Assembly: GCA_023265395.1 (NCBI GenBank)
Contig: JAHFTX010000001.1
Location: forward strand, 65,897 to 129,896
From: Thermoplasmata archaeon
Lineage (GTDB): Archaea; Thermoplasmatota; DTKX01; JAHFTX01
Length of the DNA stretch: 64,000 nucleotides
Reading direction: 5' to 3'
How positions within the stretch are numbered: the first letter of the stretch is position 1; the number at the start of each line of letters is the position of its first letter. Both the position numbers and the translations under genes were made by a program. Below are positions 15,911 through 55,106 of the stretch, piece after piece. The notes below the pieces were generated by a model. The model had not been told where the DNA came from and did not search any database. It saw only the letters and a list, made by a program, of their open reading frames with translations.

Positions 15911-16822
15911 TCACTCTCGTGGGGATGGGACGCCTTCGGCCCTGCTCGAGAAGACCATCCCGAGTGCAGTGACGATGTCCTCGAAGCGGGCGCCCCAGGG
16001 TACCGTCACAACACCGTCGGGTCCAGCCTGAACCTGTTCGATTAGATCACAGCACTTGGCTAGCACGAGGGGCCGTGTCCCGCTGGAGCGGGCCTTGGGG
16101 AGCAGTTGATCCAATCGGCTGCGTGGGCAGATGTCACGGAAGTGCGGCCGCACATGGTAGGTCGCCAGGAACACCTTGCGCGAGAGGTCGCACCCGACCA
16201 GCAGAGCCTCGGTGGGGTTCTGTAGGGTGCCCTTCTCCTCAAGGTAACATAGCGAGTGCCCGCCGGAATCCCATCCGCTACAGCGGCAGGGCAGAACGAC
16301 CTCACGCTCAACCGCTTCCGTGACCCACGGCTGCAGGTCTGTGAGCACCGGCACGATTTCCACGGGGCGGTCATGGGAGACCAATGCCAGGGCGCGCTCG
16401 ACTAGGACGACGAGCTTGGGCGGGGAGGGAGGGACCAGATCGATCACATAGAGTGGAATCGCCGGTTCCTTGTGGATGAAGGAGATATGGTCGAACTCGC
16501 CCTCGATGACGACGATGGGGTGTGGGACGACTGCGGCAGCCTTGGCCATGGACCAATGGTTGAGGGTGTCAGTCTGCGGGGAATGGAGATAGGCCACCTC
16601 TTCAGCCCCTACCCCAAGGAAAGCGAAATCTCTGACCGGGCAGAATAGGCCCTTGCCAGTGCACGTGATCGCCACGACCGCCCAGGTCTCGCCGTTGGTG
16701 AAGACGAGGTGAGTCGTCCCCTGGTAGAGGTTCCGACCGGCAAGCCAGGCGACAATCGTATCCCTCTCGACTGCCCCGGAGAGGTGCACCATCCCCACGT
16801 GGGAACAATGGGATGGGATCAC
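15911..16822 (-). CDS. Hypothetical protein (possibly a degenerate metallo-hydrolase fold)
   Basis: 303 aa ORF with coherent composition. No clean HxHxDH or other catalytic motif could be identified. Confidence 0.45.
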   Translation of the reverse strand: MIPSHCSHVGMVHLSGAVERDTIVAWLAGRNLYQGTTHLVFTNGETWAVVAITCTGKGLFCPVRDFAFLGVGAEEVAYLHSPQTDTLNHWSMAKAAAVVPHPIVVIEGEFDHISFIHKEPAIPLYVIDLVPPSPPKLVVLVERALALVSHDRPVEIVPVLTDLQPWVTEAVEREVVLPCRCSGWDSGGHSLCYLEEKGTLQNPTEALLVGCDLSRKVFLATYHVRPHFRDICPRSRLDQLLPKARSSGTRPLVLAKCCDLIEQVQAGPDGVVTVPWGARFEDIVTALGMVFSSRAEGVPSPRE

Positions 16823-16867: not shown

Positions 16868-17173
16868 CTACTCGTCCCCGTCGTCCTGGGCAAGCTTGGT
16901 CGCGATGTCCTGACGGAGGTTTTCAGAAGTCTTCCCTTCAGTAGGGATTCCCAGTTGCTTGGCGGTCCGGACGATCTTCGAAGATGGAGGAGGTATCTTG
17001 CGACCACGGGCACGTTGCGCCTCAAGTCGCTGTTCTGATTCGAGCTTGCCAATCTCGTACTCGCCCCGAGCCTGGCCCATGCTACGAGCGAGTTCGGGGA
17101 GCTTGCGTGCCCCAAAGAGGAGCAGCAGGATGATGCCAATCAGCACAAAGGTCTCTGGACCGAATTGGACCAT
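16868..17173 (-). CDS. tatA: Sec-independent protein translocase subunit TatA/E
   Basis: From MVQFGPETFVLIGIILLLLFGARKLPELARSMGQARGEYE: N-terminal TM helix, then LLFGxxKLPELxRxxGxA, the diagnostic TatA hinge and amphipathic helix. A TATTTAAA TATA-like box lies at 17210-17217 upstream on this strand. Confidence 0.8.
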   Translation of the reverse strand: MVQFGPETFVLIGIILLLLFGARKLPELARSMGQARGEYEIGKLESEQRLEAQRARGRKIPPPSSKIVRTAKQLGIPTEGKTSENLRQDIATKLAQDDGDE

Positions 17174-17276: not shown

Positions 17277-17561
17277 GTGCACCATCCCGGTCGGGGGGGA
17301 GATGGTTCCTTGGCGCTTCGTCTGACGGTCAAGGATGCTGAGACGGGCAACCGCATCGAGATGGAACTGCAGGCGGAGAACACCGTCGATGAGGCAATCG
17401 AGAGCGCCTGCAGTTATTGGAGCAAGCGGCAAGGTGCTTTCGTCCTCAAGCAAGGCTCCACCATCTTGCGTGGGGGCGCGACCCTTCAGGGCAGTCACAT
17501 CGGAGAGCACACCATGCTCGAGCTGATTCCAGACCCACAGGGGGGTGCTCCTCTTGCCTAG
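17277..17561 (+). CDS. Ubiquitin-like small protein (beta-grasp) with C-terminal Gly-Gly followed by a 4-residue tail (pro-protein form)
   Basis: About 80-94 aa; ...LRLTVKDAETGNRIEMELQAENTVDEAIESACSYWSKRQGAFVLKQGSTILRGGATLQGSHIGEHTMLELIPDPQGG-APLA*. Start is non-ATG (GTG 17277 or TTG 17310, each preceded by a G-run). Overlaps the following E2-like gene by 8-17 nt. Confidence 0.6.
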   Translation: MHHPGRGGDGSLALRLTVKDAETGNRIEMELQAENTVDEAIESACSYWSKRQGAFVLKQGSTILRGGATLQGSHIGEHTMLELIPDPQGGAPLA

Positions 17562-18054
17562 GCTACCCGAGGACATCGTTCGTCAGCGGGTCGTCAATGA
17601 GTTGCGCGCGTGTCTGGATTCCTCCCGGCACACGATTAGGCTCGAAGAGGGGGCCCTCGAGAAGTTCCCAAACCGGGTCTGGATCGAGCTTGTTGGCTGT
17701 CCCGCGATGGTGCGCAGGGGAGACCGGGTCGAGACCTCGAGCGAACATCGCTTCCTGCTCGAGGTTCCGCGGGATTACCCCTACGAGCGTCCGACGGTCA
17801 TCTGGGCAACGGACATCTTCCACCCCAACATCATGCTCCCCAGCGAGGGAGGGTTCGTCTGCACCGGACTCCTGGAAGGGTGGACATCCCGCAGCACCTT
17901 GCTCGGATTCCTCCAGGGCCTGGAGGCGCTGCTGGCCAACCCCAATGCGGATAGCCCGTACGGAACCGCCAGTTGTACTTCGGCTGCCCAATACCTCAAT
18001 GCTCAACGAGCGACACCAGGGAGGACCCCTCAACTCTCTCGGACCTCCGGATGA
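17545..18054 (+). CDS. Ubiquitin-conjugating enzyme (E2/UBC-fold)-like protein
   Basis: 169 aa; ...DYPYERPTVIWATDIFHPNIMLPSEGGFVCTGLLEGWTSRSTLLGFLQGLEALLANPNADSP reproduces the UBC core: HPN motif, catalytic Cys 10 residues downstream, conserved Trp, LL..PN..P helix. GTG or TTG start. Confidence 0.75.
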   Translation: MLLLPRLPEDIVRQRVVNELRACLDSSRHTIRLEEGALEKFPNRVWIELVGCPAMVRRGDRVETSSEHRFLLEVPRDYPYERPTVIWATDIFHPNIMLPSEGGFVCTGLLEGWTSRSTLLGFLQGLEALLANPNADSPYGTASCTSAAQYLNAQRATPGRTPQLSRTSG

Positions 18055-18069
18055 GGTGGGTAGGCCTCG

Positions 18070-18729
18070 ATGGTTCCACCGGCGCCCGAGCAGCACTCCC
18101 GGCCGCCATCAGTCGTGCGAGAAGTGCGTCTCCGGCGGCTCTTGGTCGAACCGCCGCGAGGCGAGCTGCCGCCCTGGGACCCTGAAGCGGCGGAACTCGC
18201 TAACGACCTCGCCCGTTGCACCATCGCAGCGGAGGCATGGGCAAGCATCGTCGATCAGTGTCGTTCGGCAGCGCAACGCAACGAGGAGACTATCGGGTTC
18301 CTGGTCGGGAGGCGAGTTGCCTGCAGGCGGACTCCGACGAAGGAGAACCGCCGTGCGACGCATCTCTTCGTCGCCATCACCCGCGCCATCACTGGAGAGC
18401 ACCGCGGCGACACCGTCTCTGTCCGATTCACCTCAGAGGGCCTCGCCCAGGCCGCAGGGCTCCTCAGTTTCGGTAGAGGGGGACGATCCGAGCAGCTGGT
18501 GGGGTGGTATCATAGTCACCTCGAGTTGGGATGCTTCCTCTCGGATCGGGACCTCATGACGCATGCACAAGCATTCCCTGGCGACGATGCGATCGCGCTG
18601 GTTGTGGATCCGCTACGGCGGGAGGCACGCGCATTCGCGCGCCCGCAATCTCGCGCCCTTGCCCCAGCTGGACCCGTCCAGGTGAGCTGGCTCCTGATTA
18701 CCGATGGAGTCACAGACCGTCCGGCTTGA
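18070..18729 (+). CDS. JAMM/MPN+ metalloprotease (Rpn11/JAB1-like deubiquitinase/processing protease)
   Basis: 219 aa; E-x(n)-H-x-H-x(7)-S-x(2)-D is present as EETIGFLVG...VGWYHSHLELGCFLSDRD. Confidence 0.8.
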   Translation: MVPPAPEQHSRPPSVVREVRLRRLLVEPPRGELPPWDPEAAELANDLARCTIAAEAWASIVDQCRSAAQRNEETIGFLVGRRVACRRTPTKENRRATHLFVAITRAITGEHRGDTVSVRFTSEGLAQAAGLLSFGRGGRSEQLVGWYHSHLELGCFLSDRDLMTHAQAFPGDDAIALVVDPLRREARAFARPQSRALAPAGPVQVSWLLITDGVTDRPA

Positions 18730-50734: not shown

Positions 50735-52513
50735 ATGGCCCATCCAATCGTCTCCCTGGCGAAGCGACGGGGGTTCTACTGGCCCGCCTTCGAGATCTAT
50801 CAGGGGGTGGGGGGACTCTATGACCTTGGGCCCCTTGGAGCGCGCCTGCAGCAGGAGTTGGTCGACCTGTGGCGCTCGACCTACGTCCTGCCGGAAGGAT
50901 TCCTGGAAGTCGACACGCCGACCCTTGGTCCGGAGGTGCTCTTCCGCGCCAGCGGCCATCTTGGGGAGTTTGCCGATTTGCTGGTCTGCTGCCGGTCCTG
51001 CCAAGAGCCTTTCCGTGCCGACCATCTCCTCGAGGGAGTGCATCCCAACCCCGAAGCTCTCCCCGCGCCAGAGGTCGATGGCCTGCTGGTGCAGCATAAA
51101 GTCCGCTGCCCACGTTGCGGCGCGAGTTCCTTCGATCCCGCTCGCCCCTTCAACCTGATGTTCCAATCCAACTTCGGCCCCATCCCCGGTAGATTCGCCT
51201 ATCTGCGGCCGGAGACGGCCCAGGGGATATTCGCCAACTTCCCGGCCCTCTACAGGCTCCACCGCAAGCGGCTTCCGTTCGGCGTCGCACAGGTCGGTCG
51301 CGCTTACCGCAATGAGATCAGCCCGCGGCAGGGGTTGTTGCGATTGCGCGAGTTTGGACAGATGGAGGTCGAGTATTTCCACGGTCCGACCCCTGCCGAC
51401 AAGGACCACCCACGCTTTGGTGAGATCGCCGCTGACCTCACCTCGCTGGTGCCGGCACCTGCTGCTGGCACCCCCGCAGCCCCCGTTGCTGTGACGTTCC
51501 AGCAGGCCGTGGATCGCCACATCGTCGCCCATCGGCTCATCGCCTACCACCTAGCGCGGGTCCAGCAATTCCTCCTCCGCGCGGGGATCCCCGCGGAGCG
51601 GTTGCGCTTCCGCCAGCACGAAGCAGACGAGATGGCCCACTACGCCCTTGACTGTTGGGATGCCGAAGTCCTGCTCGAGGCTGGCTGGGTCGAGGTGGTC
51701 GGCATCGCGGACCGCGGGTGCTTCGACCTCGAGCAGCACCAGAAGGCGAGTGGCATCTCGATGGAAGCCGAGCGCATCCTTGCTGAACCACGGGAGGAGG
51801 AGGTGACGGAGGTCATCCCCAACTTCGCGACCCTCGGGCCTTCATTCAAGGGCAAGGCGAAGGCCATCGGGGAGGCCCTGCGTTCCCTGGACCACGCGGT
51901 GCTCGCTGGACCAATCACGCTGACCCTCGAGGGTGGGGAGGAGGTCGTCATCCGCTCCGACCATTTTAGCCTCTCGACGCGGAAGGAACGTAGGACCGTC
52001 GAGCCCTTCCTCCCTCATGTCGTCGAACCTAGCTTCGGCCTCTCTCGCATCCTCTATTGCGTCCTCGAGACCTGCTATCAGGTCGAGGTATCCCCCTCGG
52101 AGTCTGATGCGGAGCAGGGAACCTCCGAGCCCGAGGATGGGGAGGGATCCGCTGCCGGGGGGTACGTCCGGTTACGCCTGCCACCGGTGATTGCCCCCAC
52201 GAAGGTGGGCGTCTTCCCGCTGATGGATCGTGACGGGTTGACGGAACTGGCGCTGCAAGCCGAACGTCGAGCAATCGCGGAGGGCCTGTCTGCCTTCGTC
52301 GACACCAGTCAATCGATCGGTCGACGCTACGCCCGCGCTGACGAAGTCGGCGTCCCATTCTGCATCACCATCGACTATCAGACCAAGGAGGATGGGACGG
52401 TCACGTTGCGTCACCGGGATACGCGCACCCAAGAACGCCACTCGATCGTCGATGCGCTCTTGGCCGTCGCCGCGGCGGTCCGGAAGCCTGTTTCATTCGG
52501 CAGAGGGACCTAA
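50735..52513 (+). CDS. glyS: Glycine--tRNA ligase (archaeal/eukaryotic-type class II)
   Basis: 592 aa; N-terminal RRGFYWPAFEIYQGVGGLYDLGPLG, class II motifs (FRNEISPRQGLLRLREF), C-terminal anticodon-binding domain. Confidence 0.9.
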   Translation: MAHPIVSLAKRRGFYWPAFEIYQGVGGLYDLGPLGARLQQELVDLWRSTYVLPEGFLEVDTPTLGPEVLFRASGHLGEFADLLVCCRSCQEPFRADHLLEGVHPNPEALPAPEVDGLLVQHKVRCPRCGASSFDPARPFNLMFQSNFGPIPGRFAYLRPETAQGIFANFPALYRLHRKRLPFGVAQVGRAYRNEISPRQGLLRLREFGQMEVEYFHGPTPADKDHPRFGEIAADLTSLVPAPAAGTPAAPVAVTFQQAVDRHIVAHRLIAYHLARVQQFLLRAGIPAERLRFRQHEADEMAHYALDCWDAEVLLEAGWVEVVGIADRGCFDLEQHQKASGISMEAERILAEPREEEVTEVIPNFATLGPSFKGKAKAIGEALRSLDHAVLAGPITLTLEGGEEVVIRSDHFSLSTRKERRTVEPFLPHVVEPSFGLSRILYCVLETCYQVEVSPSESDAEQGTSEPEDGEGSAAGGYVRLRLPPVIAPTKVGVFPLMDRDGLTELALQAERRAIAEGLSAFVDTSQSIGRRYARADEVGVPFCITIDYQTKEDGTVTLRHRDTRTQERHSIVDALLAVAAAVRKPVSFGRGT

Positions 52514-53691
52514 GCGTCCTCATCCTTGCGAGGCTTGCGCCGGCCGCGGCTGACGGGGTGCACCGATGGCTTGCGCGTGGTCGCTTTCTTTGCTGGACCA
52601 CCGGCATGCTTGCCACGGCTAGTGGCCCGGCCGCCCTTGGGGGCAGCGCTCCGTACCCGTGTCGTCGCATGGGCGACTTTGGTCTCGGCCACCTCGTGTG
52701 TCGGAGTTGCCCGGGTCCTGTGCGGCGTGCGATGCGCGTGTCGATCTGAATCTCGATGGCGCGGGAGGGGACGCGTGCGCCCCCTCAATGCGCGGTGATT
52801 GTCGTCCTCCTTGGCGGGGGTCCGTCTCGGTGGGCCACCGACGGGATGAGAGACGAGTGAATGGAGGTCGTCCTGCAACAGGAGGGTCTCGTCGGAGATC
52901 AGGATCCCCTCGGGGAGGGGCTGGTCGTAGACATATCCGAACCAGTAGATCACCAGGCCCGACCCGAACAAGGACAGGTAGGGTGCCAGTTGCTTGGTGA
53001 GGTTGCGGCGGATTTCCACGCGGTCACCGAAGTTGGCTTTGCTCTCGATCCAGTGAATCTCGAGGTTGTCGACCACCAGGGGTTCATGCAACAGGACATC
53101 GGGGGTCTTGGTGTGTTCGCCTCGCAGGTCATTCTCCGTAAGGTAGGAGATGCCATGGCGGTCGAGCCATTCGTTCAACCGTCCCTCCCCGACCTTCCCA
53201 CGAGCGTGCTGGATATCGGTCCCCTCGGGGGAGTAGATCAGGTCTTCTTCGAGCAGCTCCTCGACCTCCTTGCGGAGTCGGCGGTCCGGGATCGTGGCGG
53301 GGTCGCGGATGTATGCCCAGAAGCGTTTGCGCGGGACGCGGTCCTCCATCAGGAGCTGATAGGCGGTGAGAATCGGGGGGAAATCCACCCGCTGGGCGAT
53401 CTGCAGCAAGCTCTCCCCGCCCTTCCATGCTGTGACCAGCTGGCGGGCTTGGGATTTTACCTTGTAGAAGCGCTTGGTCGCAGCACGCGTCACCCGCTGG
53501 GTGTAGAGGATCAGGAGCATCTCCGGGTCGTACCCCGTCTCTGCGGAGATCCGTTCGATGGATCGCCAGTGGTCGATCCGCGATTGCAGGGCCTCGTACT
53601 CCGATTGCTGCAGCAAGGCGCGCCGATAGCGGCGTGCACTGGCGGGATGATGGTCAGCCTGTGCTGGAACCTTGACACGTGACCCGGGCAC
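52510..53691 (-). CDS. TPD-motif (CDIN1/C15orf41-like) predicted PD-(D/E)xK nuclease-fold protein with ~120-aa basic disordered C-terminal tail
   Basis: 393 aa; conserved T-P-D in HTKTPDVLLHEPLVVDNLEIHWIESKANFGD with D...E-S-K, matching the PD-(D/E)xK arrangement. Tail is R/K/H/T/P-rich. Stop overlaps the glyS stop (convergent, 4-nt overlap). Confidence 0.55.
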   Translation of the reverse strand: MPGSRVKVPAQADHHPASARRYRRALLQQSEYEALQSRIDHWRSIERISAETGYDPEMLLILYTQRVTRAATKRFYKVKSQARQLVTAWKGGESLLQIAQRVDFPPILTAYQLLMEDRVPRKRFWAYIRDPATIPDRRLRKEVEELLEEDLIYSPEGTDIQHARGKVGEGRLNEWLDRHGISYLTENDLRGEHTKTPDVLLHEPLVVDNLEIHWIESKANFGDRVEIRRNLTKQLAPYLSLFGSGLVIYWFGYVYDQPLPEGILISDETLLLQDDLHSLVSHPVGGPPRRTPAKEDDNHRALRGRTRPLPRHRDSDRHAHRTPHRTRATPTHEVAETKVAHATTRVRSAAPKGGRATSRGKHAGGPAKKATTRKPSVHPVSRGRRKPRKDEDA

Positions 53692-53704: not shown

Positions 53705-54847
53705 CTAGATCTCCATCTCCATCGGTTCGAGTTCGATGTCCGACAGCTGGGCGCCTTCGAGGTCTAGGGGCTTGGCCTCGGGGCGGTACTCGATGTCGAA
53801 GTCGACTTCGGCTGCAGGGAAGCTGCGGGTGGGCTCGATGTAGAGCAACTCGAAGTCGAAGGAGAGCTCGGTCGCGTCCATCGCGATCGGTTCTCCGATG
53901 GTGAACTTGCGCAACCAGTAGGTGAATTCGCTTGGGAGGTGCTCGCGCAGCTGCTCGTAGGGAAGGATGTGCCCGACCTCCCACAGCGGATGCATGATCG
54001 GACGGTCGCGGATGAGCCGTAGCAGATCATCATCCATCTGCAAGAAGAGGAGCTTCCGTCGAATCTCTCCAAGCTCCTCCTTGCTGTAGGTGCGGGGGAA
54101 GTGGCGATTGCGACGGGCAGGCTTCCCCGAACCGAACAGGAAAGGGGTCCGGATGTCCCGCAGATGTTCGACCAGCTGCTGGGCGTGAGCCCGTTCCATG
54201 AGGTCGAAGGTCAAGAGGGTGGACGCGCCAGCGGGGAGCAGGCTGATCTCCTTGTGCGGATCGAGGCTGATGAAATCGAAGGGCAGCACCGCAGTGACCC
54301 GCAGGAACCGCAGGCTGTAGTCGAGGCGGTTGGTCAGCCGCATCGCGTACTCGGGTACACCCGCTCGGATCTGCAGGGTCGCCTCGACCTCGACATCACG
54401 CCCAAGGATCAGCCCCCCCCCCTCTCCAAGGCCCCACGCCGCGCGCTGCGGGATCAGCTGGAAGGAGACTGCCCCCCGCTCCCCGGGGTGCAAGGGTCCG
54501 ATCGCCTTCGAGATAGCGTCAGACCCAAAGTCTTCCCCGAGGACCTCCGGCCGGACGACGATCCGGCGGATGGCCTGGCGGTCCTGGTTGACCACAGCGA
54601 CGGTGTACCGTACGAATCCATCTCCCCAGACCATCGTGGCGGTGACAGCGACGTCCCAGCGACTAAGGGGGTACTCGGGGGTGATCTCGTCGAGAATGGA
54701 CTCTCCGAGGTCGCTCGATTGGGTCTCAGTCTGTGCGGGCATGGGAGCGGCTGCTGGCAAGGTCGCGGCGAGGAGGGATGCTCGTCGATGGAGAGGGGGC
54801 CATATCTGCCTTGTGGCCCCGGTCGCGGGTGGTCGCTCATCCCCCAC
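53705..54847 (-). CDS. Hypothetical protein
   Basis: 380 aa ORF with coherent composition and an acidic C-terminus. No motif recognised. Overlaps the upstream moaD-like gene by 11 nt. Confidence 0.45.
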   Translation of the reverse strand: MGDERPPATGATRQIWPPLHRRASLLAATLPAAAPMPAQTETQSSDLGESILDEITPEYPLSRWDVAVTATMVWGDGFVRYTVAVVNQDRQAIRRIVVRPEVLGEDFGSDAISKAIGPLHPGERGAVSFQLIPQRAAWGLGEGGGLILGRDVEVEATLQIRAGVPEYAMRLTNRLDYSLRFLRVTAVLPFDFISLDPHKEISLLPAGASTLLTFDLMERAHAQQLVEHLRDIRTPFLFGSGKPARRNRHFPRTYSKEELGEIRRKLLFLQMDDDLLRLIRDRPIMHPLWEVGHILPYEQLREHLPSEFTYWLRKFTIGEPIAMDATELSFDFELLYIEPTRSFPAAEVDFDIEYRPEAKPLDLEGAQLSDIELEPMEMEI

Positions 54848-55106
54848 TGACGGGGGGGAGGAGCGCCACCTCGTCGCCTTCGCAGATTGTCCCCTCTCCG
54901 TCTACGACCTGTCGATTCACTGCCAAGACTGCTTGGTTCCGGTACGGTCCGATGGCGGGGTTGCTGCGGCAGATCGCATCGAGGACGTCGCTGGCGGAAG
55001 CTGGGAGAATCAGACTCAAGACAAGGTGATCGCCGTTGCTGACCTCTCGAAAGAGGGCGAAGAGCTGCACTCTCAACGTCGATGGTCCTCGCCTGCTTGC
55101 TGGCAT
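54837..55106 (-). CDS. moaD: MoaD/ThiS-family small beta-grasp protein ending in Gly-Gly (molybdopterin synthase sulfur carrier or SAMP-type modifier)
   Basis: 89 aa; ...GEGTICEGDEVALLPPVSGG* is the typical MoaD C-terminus with terminal diglycine. Confidence 0.65.
   Translation of the reverse strand: MPASRRGPSTLRVQLFALFREVSNGDHLVLSLILPASASDVLDAICRSNPAIGPYRNQAVLAVNRQVVDGEGTICEGDEVALLPPVSGG

Follow-up and report, generated by a model that had tools for sequence, protein, structure and literature searches.

Operons that encode eukaryote-like ubiquitin (Ub), E1, E2 and RING proteins have been placed in Aigarchaeota, in Asgard archaea and in scattered bacteria (PMC3082918, PMC5654768, PMC4571572, PMC4327156). 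In Caldiarchaeum subterraneum and the Asgard archaea, the operon comprises Ub, an E1-like protein, an E2-like protein, a small RING finger protein and an Rpn11-like JAMM protease (PMC3082918, PMC5654768), and structures of the Caldiarchaeum enzymes are available (Fuchs 2018, PDB 6fjv/6fnn). Environmental Crenarchaeota genomes with Ub genes have also been described (PMC4327156), and so has the genome of one marine group II archaeon, which encodes a UCH protein and RINGs (PMC3082918, PMC5654768, PMC4571572, PMC4327156). For the Thermoplasmatota, we found one sentence, in a preprint whose E2/UEV tree has a deep clade labelled 'Ca. Thermoplasmatota E2' (bioRxiv 10.1101/2023.07.25.550441). In the openly searchable literature, subscription-only publications excluded, we found nothing relevant that joins Methanomassiliicoccales or Methanomethylophilaceae with ubiquitin and no description of a Thermoplasmata cassette, gut methanogens included. 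Here, we analyzed 64,000 nucleotides from an uncultured Thermoplasmata archaeon (assembly GCA_023265395.1, contig JAHFTX010000001.1, positions 65,897 to 129,896; hereafter the window). The open reading frame (ORF) list of the window contains three consecutive plus-strand genes, spanning 17310-18729, for a ubiquitin-like modifier (Ubl), an E2 enzyme and a JAMM/MPN+ metalloprotease (JAB). We predict that together they probably make up an operon of three genes that functions in ubiquitin-type protein conjugation.

A preliminary description of this DNA, made from the letters and an ORF list, had named an E2-like protein with the full UBC signature and its catalytic cysteine, and the HPN motif and the Cys proved to be intact. 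The protein carries the signature HPNIMLPSEGGFVCTGLLEGW...ALLANPN, and its catalytic residue is Cys103 in the numbering of the 166-aa protein (Cys106 when counted from the GTG start). It matched Pfam UQ_con (PF00179) over residues 68-143 with 47.9 bits against a cut-off of 27. A phmmer search of the PDB recovered 268 E2 chains at E<=1, the best being E2-C/UbcH10 (1.5e-10). AlphaFold2 models were built on shallow alignments of 5 and 12 sequences; that of the E2 had a predicted local distance difference test score (pLDDT) of 85, a predicted template-modelling score (pTM) of 0.78 and the UBC order of elements. The top 50 Foldseek matches of this model were all E2s, with Rad6, Cdc34, UbcH10 and UbcH5 as the best. 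Their target-normalised template-modelling scores (TM-scores) lay between 0.54 and 0.74 over ~150 columns, except for a 331-residue fusion chain (0.35). Profile and model thus agree on the UBC assignment. Two features of the model differ from expectation: the last helix (alpha4) seems to be absent, and the beta2-beta3 strands are suggested to be unusually long. Alignment with E2-C also revealed an active-site loop insertion, the HPN-to-Cys spacer being three residues longer than in canonical E2s. This spacing is a family trait, as HPN-x10-C is invariant in 70/70 E2 family members, with the family signature HPNIM..EGGFVCT.

The modifier had been described as an ~80-aa ubiquitin-like protein ending in PDPQGG-APLA. 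The gene encodes 83 aa and its C-terminus indeed reads ...ELIPDPQGG-APLA-stop. Taken by itself, the pro-Ubl sequence gave a marginal Hub1 match at most. Its AlphaFold2 model (pLDDT 83) is a beta-grasp fold with the order beta-beta-alpha-beta-beta-beta, and the Foldseek neighbours of the model were Hub1, ubiquitin, SUMO1 and Caldiarchaeum Ub (CsUb), with target-normalised TM-scores of 0.76-0.90; ThiS and MoaD were not among the best matches. When the 31-sequence Ubl family was compared with human ubiquitin by hhalign, the probability was 93.5% (E 2e-7), and Ubl 9-79 aligned with Ub 6-76 with both Gly-Gly (GG) ends in register. A search of the PDB with the Ubl family profile (hmmsearch) ranked ubiquitin chains, ubiquitin-derived variants and the Rad23 UBL domain as the top 60 matches, single Ub chains scoring 19-23 bits (E 8e-4 to 1e-2). 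By its predicted fold, its structural neighbours and its family profile, the protein is identified as a ubiquitin-type beta-grasp modifier.

Conservation of the C-terminus points the same way. The diglycine was invariant, both in the 35 orthologues first recovered (35/35) and in the 31-sequence alignment. All 35 carry IPDP[EQ]GG, and V or T takes the place of [EQ] in some additional members. Neither Arg nor Lys occurs close to the GG in the window's Ubl or in most of its relatives. After the GG, orthologues have an immediate stop, one residue or a tail of up to 15 residues (range 0-15 aa), a pattern expected of a modifier whose GG a protease must expose. We also found natural Ubl-GG-E2 fusions (P0029 and P0067; 249 and 276 aa) and a tandem di-Ubl with a transmembrane tail (P0058, 289 aa) that passes the PF00240 cut-off (27.3 versus 25.4). 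From such proteins, a free modifier would arise only by cleavage after the GG. Ubl-FHA fusions without a GG occur as well (P0034, P0046).

The beta-grasp Ubl has a GG at its C-terminus and, in relatives, a ThiF-type partner, as MoaD has in MoeB, and SAMPs are dual-function proteins. The Ubl could then serve mainly as a sulfur carrier, providing a thiocarboxylate of the ThiS/MoaD/SAMP kind when cofactors or tRNA are thiolated, and the E2 and the JAB would be its accessories. We find this hardly credible. The pro-Ubl gives no match to the ThiS/MoaD-family profile (PF02597), it sits among ubiquitin, Hub1 and SUMO by fold as well as by profile, and both its propeptide after the GG and its obligate pairing with a UBC E2 are features of conjugation. 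Neither the window nor the related loci link a sulfurtransferase or a rhodanese to the cassette. Moreover, the window encodes a separate, genuine MoaD/SAMP-type protein of 89 aa, which ends ...PPVSGG and matches Pfam ThiS with 42 bits (it falls below the cut-offs of the NCBIfam moaD and SAMP1 models). The genome thus encodes both SAMP/MoaD-type and ubiquitin-type modifiers, and because of this carrier a MoeB/UbaA-type E1 is expected in it. The carrier gene adjoins a gene for a 345-aa protein without a family match; a TPD-motif protein (PF14811) is encoded nearby.

The third protein had been described as a JAMM protease with an intact zinc site, and it has one: Glu72/73 (in EETIGFLVG) and H148-S-H150-x7-S158-x2-D161. 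It passed Pfam JAB (PF01398) with 40.7 bits against a cut-off of 22.5. Its best solved relative is the Caldiarchaeum Rpn11-like protease (6fjv, 1.6e-8), followed by eukaryotic Rpn11 and CSN5, whereas it reached 18 bits against the haloarchaeal desampylase model, for which the cut-off is 130. The JAMM motif was intact in 58/59 members of the JAB family. Taken together, the profiles and models of E2, Ubl and JAB agree with the earlier reading of this cassette as a eukaryotic-type Ub/E2 architecture and not a SAMP/E1-only system.

We took a census of related loci with hidden Markov models (HMMs) built from the window's three proteins. A scan of one genome per species gave 50 loci, a metagenome scan gave 18 more, and the total reached 70 related loci. 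All of the 50 were found in Thermoplasmata, Methanomassiliicoccales or Methanomethylophilaceae metagenome-assembled genomes, or in evidently mislabelled gut bins. Where the relatives of the cassette occur also makes Thermoplasmatota the most likely phylum of the window. The E2-JAB pair is the constant core of the family: in the first 53 loci, JAB lay directly 3' of E2 in 50 and Ubl directly 5' of E2 in 34, and across the 70 loci Ubl was immediately upstream of E2 in ~40. A word-indexed protein search badly underestimated the family (4 Ubl, 11 E2), which the locus scans and HMMs corrected. An exhaustive Ubl profile search of 1.84 billion representatives returned only 70 family clusters, and the metagenome scan (JGI) for close relatives of the window cassette gave none above 51% identity. 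The active-site motifs are essentially invariant, not only in the E2 and JAB families but in every full-length E1. A gene order that recurs, together with invariant active sites, in dozens of genomes goes far beyond what chance would produce. The preliminary description had held that such operons are known from only a few archaeal lineages; the cassette is nevertheless no rare, isolated oddity but a member of a family spread through Thermoplasmata. In a quick, rough neighbour-joining (NJ) tree, the E2s grouped by lineage and architecture, suggesting mostly vertical descent; the window E2 formed a long branch.

Several loci depart from the common layout. One (L015) has two tandem E2 genes, another (L017) has two JAB genes, and in a third (L055) an E1 gene is convergent with the gene of a 233-aa UQ_con protein among unknown genes. 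Contigs binned as Anaerovoracaceae, Bacteroides salyersiae and Eggerthellaceae (L044, L051, L052, L053) carry an archaeal E1-Ubl-E2-JAB set. The first of them was confirmed to carry archaeal L13 and RpoN(Rpb10) genes 3-4 kb farther downstream, and the four look like mis-binned Methanomethylophilaceae DNA.

A ThiF-type E1 gene stands directly upstream of Ubl in ~30 of the 70 loci. It was recovered by BLAST/phmmer, with a MoeB sequence solely as the query, and afterwards with an HMM of the family; Pfam then confirmed ThiF. A first screen by regular expression (D.D.[VILF]...N[LIMV].RQ and a relaxed form) was negative everywhere, but falsely so, as the motif in the cassette E1s is SNLNRC. The linked E1s are 255-270 aa long and match Pfam ThiF with 181 bits; the domain covers 26-257 of 265 aa. 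They carry a Gly-rich loop, SNLNRC, CxxC and C..H zinc ligands and a conserved Cys in FSCTG. Their best solved relatives are the adenylation domains of Uba7, Uba1, Uba6 and SAE2 (1e-27 to 1e-22), ahead of MoeB/ThiF, while public annotation names them merely 'ThiF family adenylyltransferase'. Both deep branches of the E2 tree have members with the E1-Ubl-E2-JAB layout, so that this four-gene operon, without a small RING E3, is probably the ancestral form. Linkage of the E1 is loose: it lies 1-2.3 kb from Ubl in L018-L025 and downstream of Ubl-E2 in L063, and in the window and in L029, L030 and L032, which belong to other subclades, Ubl-E2-JAB has no E1 within at least 7-10 kb upstream. An apparent E1-Ubl fusion in L012 was discarded as unreliable, a masked stretch having been read as X.

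RING-pattern scans, which may overlook atypical fingers, detected no RING-type ORF in the window and no small RING in any E1-Ubl-E2-JAB locus. In one monophyletic sister clade without an adjacent Ubl, a giant coiled-coil protein (850 to >3100 aa) is encoded upstream of E2-JAB, directly adjoining the pair in L005, L007, L010 and L050. Its C-terminus is a C4HC3 RING-like finger that scores 24.8 bits against zf-RING_2 (cut-off 27.3), and in two loci an E1 precedes it. From these features, the giant protein is a candidate E3 of the sister clade. The E1 ORFs before the giant protein in L007 and L050 end in ...GRGG or ...GRGGG; this GG terminus was not recurrent among 120 other family E1s.

The surroundings of the cassette are those of housekeeping genes. 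Upstream and divergent lie tatA and then a DUF7714/XcbA-family gene. On the 3' side, a 111-nt spacer with a TTTATA element is followed by L44e, S27e, aIF2alpha, Nop10 and PAC2 (precomputed Pfam). This is the order given in the preliminary description, which regarded the rpl44e...PAC2 block as conserved; the order held, but its position next to the cassette is lineage-specific. In relatives, the cassette sits near L13-S9-RpoN instead, so that no functional tie to PAC2 should be read from it. The housekeeping character of these conserved neighbourhoods argues for a cellular function rather than a mobile one.

This bears on the question whether the cassette might be a Bil-type antiviral defence system, with Ubl, E2, a JAB deubiquitinase (DUB) and E1 tagging virion proteins instead of serving as a housekeeping modifier. 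The component set is identical to BilABCD, the protease BilC likewise pre-processes its Ubl (PMC10557695), and the cassette E1s of relatives bear a weak resemblance to BilD (20.5 bits) and, with scores of up to 50 bits, to the CBASS models of Cap2 E1-E2. We nevertheless judge a defence role unlikely. The window's three proteins match no PADLOC model at E<=1, and the E2 and Ubl of relatives have no meaningful matches in that library, although it includes Bil and Cap2/Cap3 models; relatives show just the generic similarity of the E1 and JAB superfamilies. Pfam ThiF and eukaryotic E1s match the linked E1 with far higher scores. Here and in relatives, the neighbours are ribosomal protein, translation and RNA polymerase genes and not defence islands, and the E2 tree, ordered by lineage and architecture, suggests mostly vertical descent.

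The signals around the three genes are listed in Table 1. As had been described, the genes are tightly spaced or overlapping on one strand, and all three ORFs were found there. Codon-position GC in the named frames of Ubl, E2 and JAB follows the coding pattern of the genome, from which the long off-frame and antisense ORFs depart. The Ubl start was set at TTG 17310 by orthologue alignments and by the public gene call on the same contig; the start of the longest ORF, GTG 17277, lies upstream of the homologous start. For the E2, orthologues all begin MP[SR]LP, which places the homologous start at TTG 17554. The G-runs and the Ubl/E2 overlap of the preliminary description are thus present, whereas its GTG/TTG starts are to be corrected, both starts being TTG and not the upstream GTGs. 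The overlap measures 8 nt (17554-17561) and suggests translational coupling; together with the 15-nt E2-JAB spacer and the Shine-Dalgarno-like G-runs, it leads us to infer co-transcription and coupled translation of the cassette. The TATA-box-like element TATTTAAA is a candidate archaeal promoter of the cassette and possibly of tatA too.

We propose that the cassette works as follows. Ubl, E2 and JAB would be co-transcribed and translationally coupled. The Rpn11-like JAMM enzyme would cut the 83-aa pro-Ubl after Gly79 and free APLA, by homology with Caldiarchaeum Rpn11 acting on pro-Ub and BilC acting on BilA. Experimental precedent for JAMM pre-processing of a Ubl exists in Caldiarchaeum (PMC5654768), and bacterial BilC pre-processes its Ubl BilA (PMC10557695); the orthologue tails of 0-15 residues, the Ubl-GG-E2 fusions and the di-Ubl support such a step. 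A ThiF-type E1, seen in relatives only, would adenylate Gly79 and take it over as a thioester on the crossover-loop Cys. The Ubl would then pass to the E2 Cys (HPN-x10-C) and on to target lysines, either without an E3 or with one. The same JAMM enzyme would also take the tag off.

Several points weigh against this proposal. The single pro-Ubl sequence has no Pfam match, including to the ubiquitin family PF00240 at E<=1. No E3 was identified for the cassette. In relatives, the linked E1 is too short to hold a ubiquitin-fold domain (UFD) or a separate Cys domain and would have to recruit a UBC E2 without them, and the conjugation chemistry is assigned by homology throughout. Finally, the preliminary description had noted neither an E1 nor a RING gene nearby, and ThiF searches and RING-pattern scans of the window bear this out: no ThiF-family ORF is present in the 64-kb window, in the 6 kb before it (to the ENA contig end) or in the 10 kb after it, a search span of ~80 kb.

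Loss of a linked E1 might have left Ubl, E2 and JAB as a decaying, non-functional remnant. The missing E1, the long branch of the window E2 and the great rarity of close relatives (<=51% identity in JGI metagenomes) would fit. We regard decay as very unlikely, because no catalytic residue is lost, the GG is preserved, nothing interrupts the ORFs and codon-position GC is normal. Furthermore, the E1-unlinked layout with intact sites recurs in three other species of different subclades (L029, L030, L032), and E1 linkage is simply loose (L018-L025, L063). Intact catalytic residues and loose linkage in other loci suggest that the E1 of this genome lies elsewhere, and since the cassette family has an ancestral linked E1, an E1 elsewhere is much likelier than a reduced variant, the other option left by the preliminary description. 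Where the E1 is unlinked, the E2 might be charged by an E1 that it shares with another modifier, such as a MoeB/UbaA-type enzyme serving the window's MoaD/SAMP protein. A profile search of the protein database (at least 2630 matches) brought up P0162, which has the source signature of the window, as a candidate for this genome's E1; it was rejected, as it comes from other samples.

Table 1. Positions of the cassette, its signals and other features (window coordinates, unless a related locus is named)
Feature	Position	Strand	Basis or remark
TATA-box-like element TATTTAAA	17213..17220		read from sequence; divergent TatA/Ubl intergenic region
G-run GGGGGGGAG, Shine-Dalgarno-like	17293..17301	+	sequence; 8 nt before Ubl TTG start
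pro-Ubl gene, 83 aa + stop	17310..17561	+	TTG 17310 to TAG 17561
Mature Ubl modifier, codons 1-79	17310-17546	+	ends in Gly78-Gly79 at 17541-17546
Ubl propeptide APLA, 4 residues	17547-17558	+	after Gly-Gly, before stop
GGGGGGTG, Ubl Gly-Gly codons doubling as Shine-Dalgarno-like element	17540..17547	+	6 nt before E2 TTG
E2 (UBC-fold) gene, 166 aa + stop	17554..18054	+	TTG 17554 to TGA 18054
E2 HPN motif	17821-17829	+	
E2 catalytic Cys	17860-17862	+	
Shine-Dalgarno-like GGTGGGTAGG in the 15-nt E2-JAB spacer	18055..18064	+	sequence; putative
JAMM/MPN+ (Rpn11-like) metalloprotease gene, 219 aa + stop	18070..18729	+	ATG 18070 to TGA 18729
JAB His148/His150	18511-18519	+	sequence
JAB Ser158	18541-18543	+	sequence
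JAB Asp161	18550-18552	+	sequence
tatA	16868-17173	-	divergent, upstream of cassette
DUF7714/XcbA-family gene	15911-16822	-	adjoins tatA
PKD/CARDB protein, 1231 aa	23381-27076	-	
ORF of 1789 aa	29953-35322	-	
XdhC/CoxI-family and Fer2 genes	~37-42 kb		
TPD-motif protein (PF14811)	52510-53691	-	near the 89-aa carrier
345-aa protein	53705-54742	-	adjoins the 89-aa carrier
89-aa ThiS/MoaD-family carrier	54837-55106	-	Pfam ThiS
Giant coiled-coil protein, L002	2-8935		C4HC3 finger
Giant coiled-coil protein, L003	1-6435		C4HC3 finger
Giant coiled-coil protein, L005	3-8342		C4HC3 finger
Giant coiled-coil protein, L007	593-9994		C4HC3 finger
Giant coiled-coil protein, L010	2-5665		C4HC3 finger
Giant coiled-coil protein, L013	2-2551		C4HC3 finger
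Giant coiled-coil protein, L021	1-8904		C4HC3 finger
Giant coiled-coil protein, L035	3-4367		C4HC3 finger
Giant coiled-coil protein, L050	446-9994		C4HC3 finger
ThiF-type E1 before giant protein, L007	2-589		ORF end GRGG or GRGGG
ThiF-type E1 before giant protein, L050	1-615		ORF end GRGG or GRGGG
Tandem E2 genes, L015	9198-10279		variant layout
Two JAB genes, L017	5360-7439		variant layout
E1 convergent with UQ_con gene, L055	5066-6947		variant layout
E1 downstream of Ubl-E2, L063	4129-6397		variant layout

Other genes of the window touch the cassette less closely. The DUF7714 protein is barely above the NCBIfam XcbA-family model (153 bits versus a cut-off of 150); XcbA is a family of the bacterial coenzyme M pathway, and the window member adjoins tatA beside the cassette. 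Farther downstream, the window encodes a 1231-aa protein with PKD/CARDB domains, which is probably surface-exposed, and an ORF of 1789 aa. XdhC/CoxI-family and [2Fe-2S] ferredoxin-type (Fer2) genes, unrelated to the cassette, suggest a molybdenum hydroxylase (CoxLMS/Xdh-type) cluster.

Eukaryote-like ubiquitin cascades of archaea, now discussed for Aigarchaeota and Asgard archaea, feed models of eukaryogenesis. It is possible, though we would hold this only tentatively, that the Thermoplasmatota, a phylum outside TACK and Asgard, received by vertical descent a minimal ubiquitin-type cascade from E1 to E2, without an E3 and composed of a UFD-less, single-domain E1, a Ub homologue, a canonical HPN E2 and an Rpn11-like protease. 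If true, the E1-to-E2 relay would predate the Asgard/TACK radiation or have been exchanged very early between archaeal phyla, and the conserved E1-Ubl-E2-JAB operon would widen the picture to a euryarchaeal-grade phylum that includes host-associated methanogens. It would also offer a stripped-down natural cascade (E3-less, with a UFD-less E1, Ubl-E2 fusions and E1-unlinked variants) for questions about a minimal relay. Databases annotate the cassette proteins only as 'ThiF family', 'UQ_con' or hypothetical. Carriers among the Methanomassiliicoccales and Methanomethylophilaceae could bring an archaeal ubiquitin system within reach of experiments on growable organisms; some carriers can be cultivated or enriched and could be used to look for the proteins that an archaeal tag of the ubiquitin type modifies in vivo.

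How does the cassette compare with described systems? Sampylation by SAMP/UbaA, with its JAMM1 desampylase, likewise joins a ThiF-family activator and a JAMM isopeptidase to a beta-grasp modifier that ends in GG. Sampylation is E2-free, however, while a UBC E2 belongs to the constant core of the cassette; the cassette Ubl stands outside the ThiS/MoaD family, and its JAB is Rpn11-like and not desampylase-like. The linked E1 of relatives resembles Uba5, the UFM1 E1, in being a single compact adenylation domain without a UFD (match ~1e-14), an architecture that resembles MoeB and ThiF too. In sequence, its nearest counterparts are instead the active adenylation domains of Uba7/Uba1/Uba6/SAE2, which are canonical E1s, and, unlike in the Uba5/UFC1 pair, its partner is a canonical-type UBC E2 with an HPN. 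With BilABCD, the ancestral form of the family shares Ubl, E2, a JAB DUB and an E1 without a dedicated E3, as well as a JAB that, in Bil, pre-processes the Ubl C-terminus (PMC10557695). It differs from Bil in that Ubl, E2 and JAB have no significant PADLOC Bil/CBASS match, the E2 fits the eukaryotic UQ_con and the context is one of housekeeping genes, conserved within an archaeal class, and not of defence islands.

The Caldiarchaeum system remains the nearest comparison. The cassette is set apart from it by its phylum, as its relatives are all Thermoplasmatota, and by the lack of a small RING E3 (srfp) in the window or any E1-Ubl-E2-JAB locus. The family E1 is a bare ThiF domain of 255-270 aa without the extra Cys-bearing insertion of the Caldiarchaeum enzyme, and in the window genome it is unlinked. 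The Ubl forms a diverged subfamily, too diverged for Pfam ubiquitin, and the E2 has the 3-residue HPN-Cys insertion. Like the Caldiarchaeum operon, the cassette is compact and operonic and pairs a pro-Ub-type beta-grasp protein, with its GG and propeptide, with an HPN/Cys UBC E2 and an Rpn11-like JAMM protease, and its proteins are nearer to the eukaryotic ones than to SAMP/MoaD/MoeB. The cassette thus shares both its logic and its protein families with the Caldiarchaeum system.

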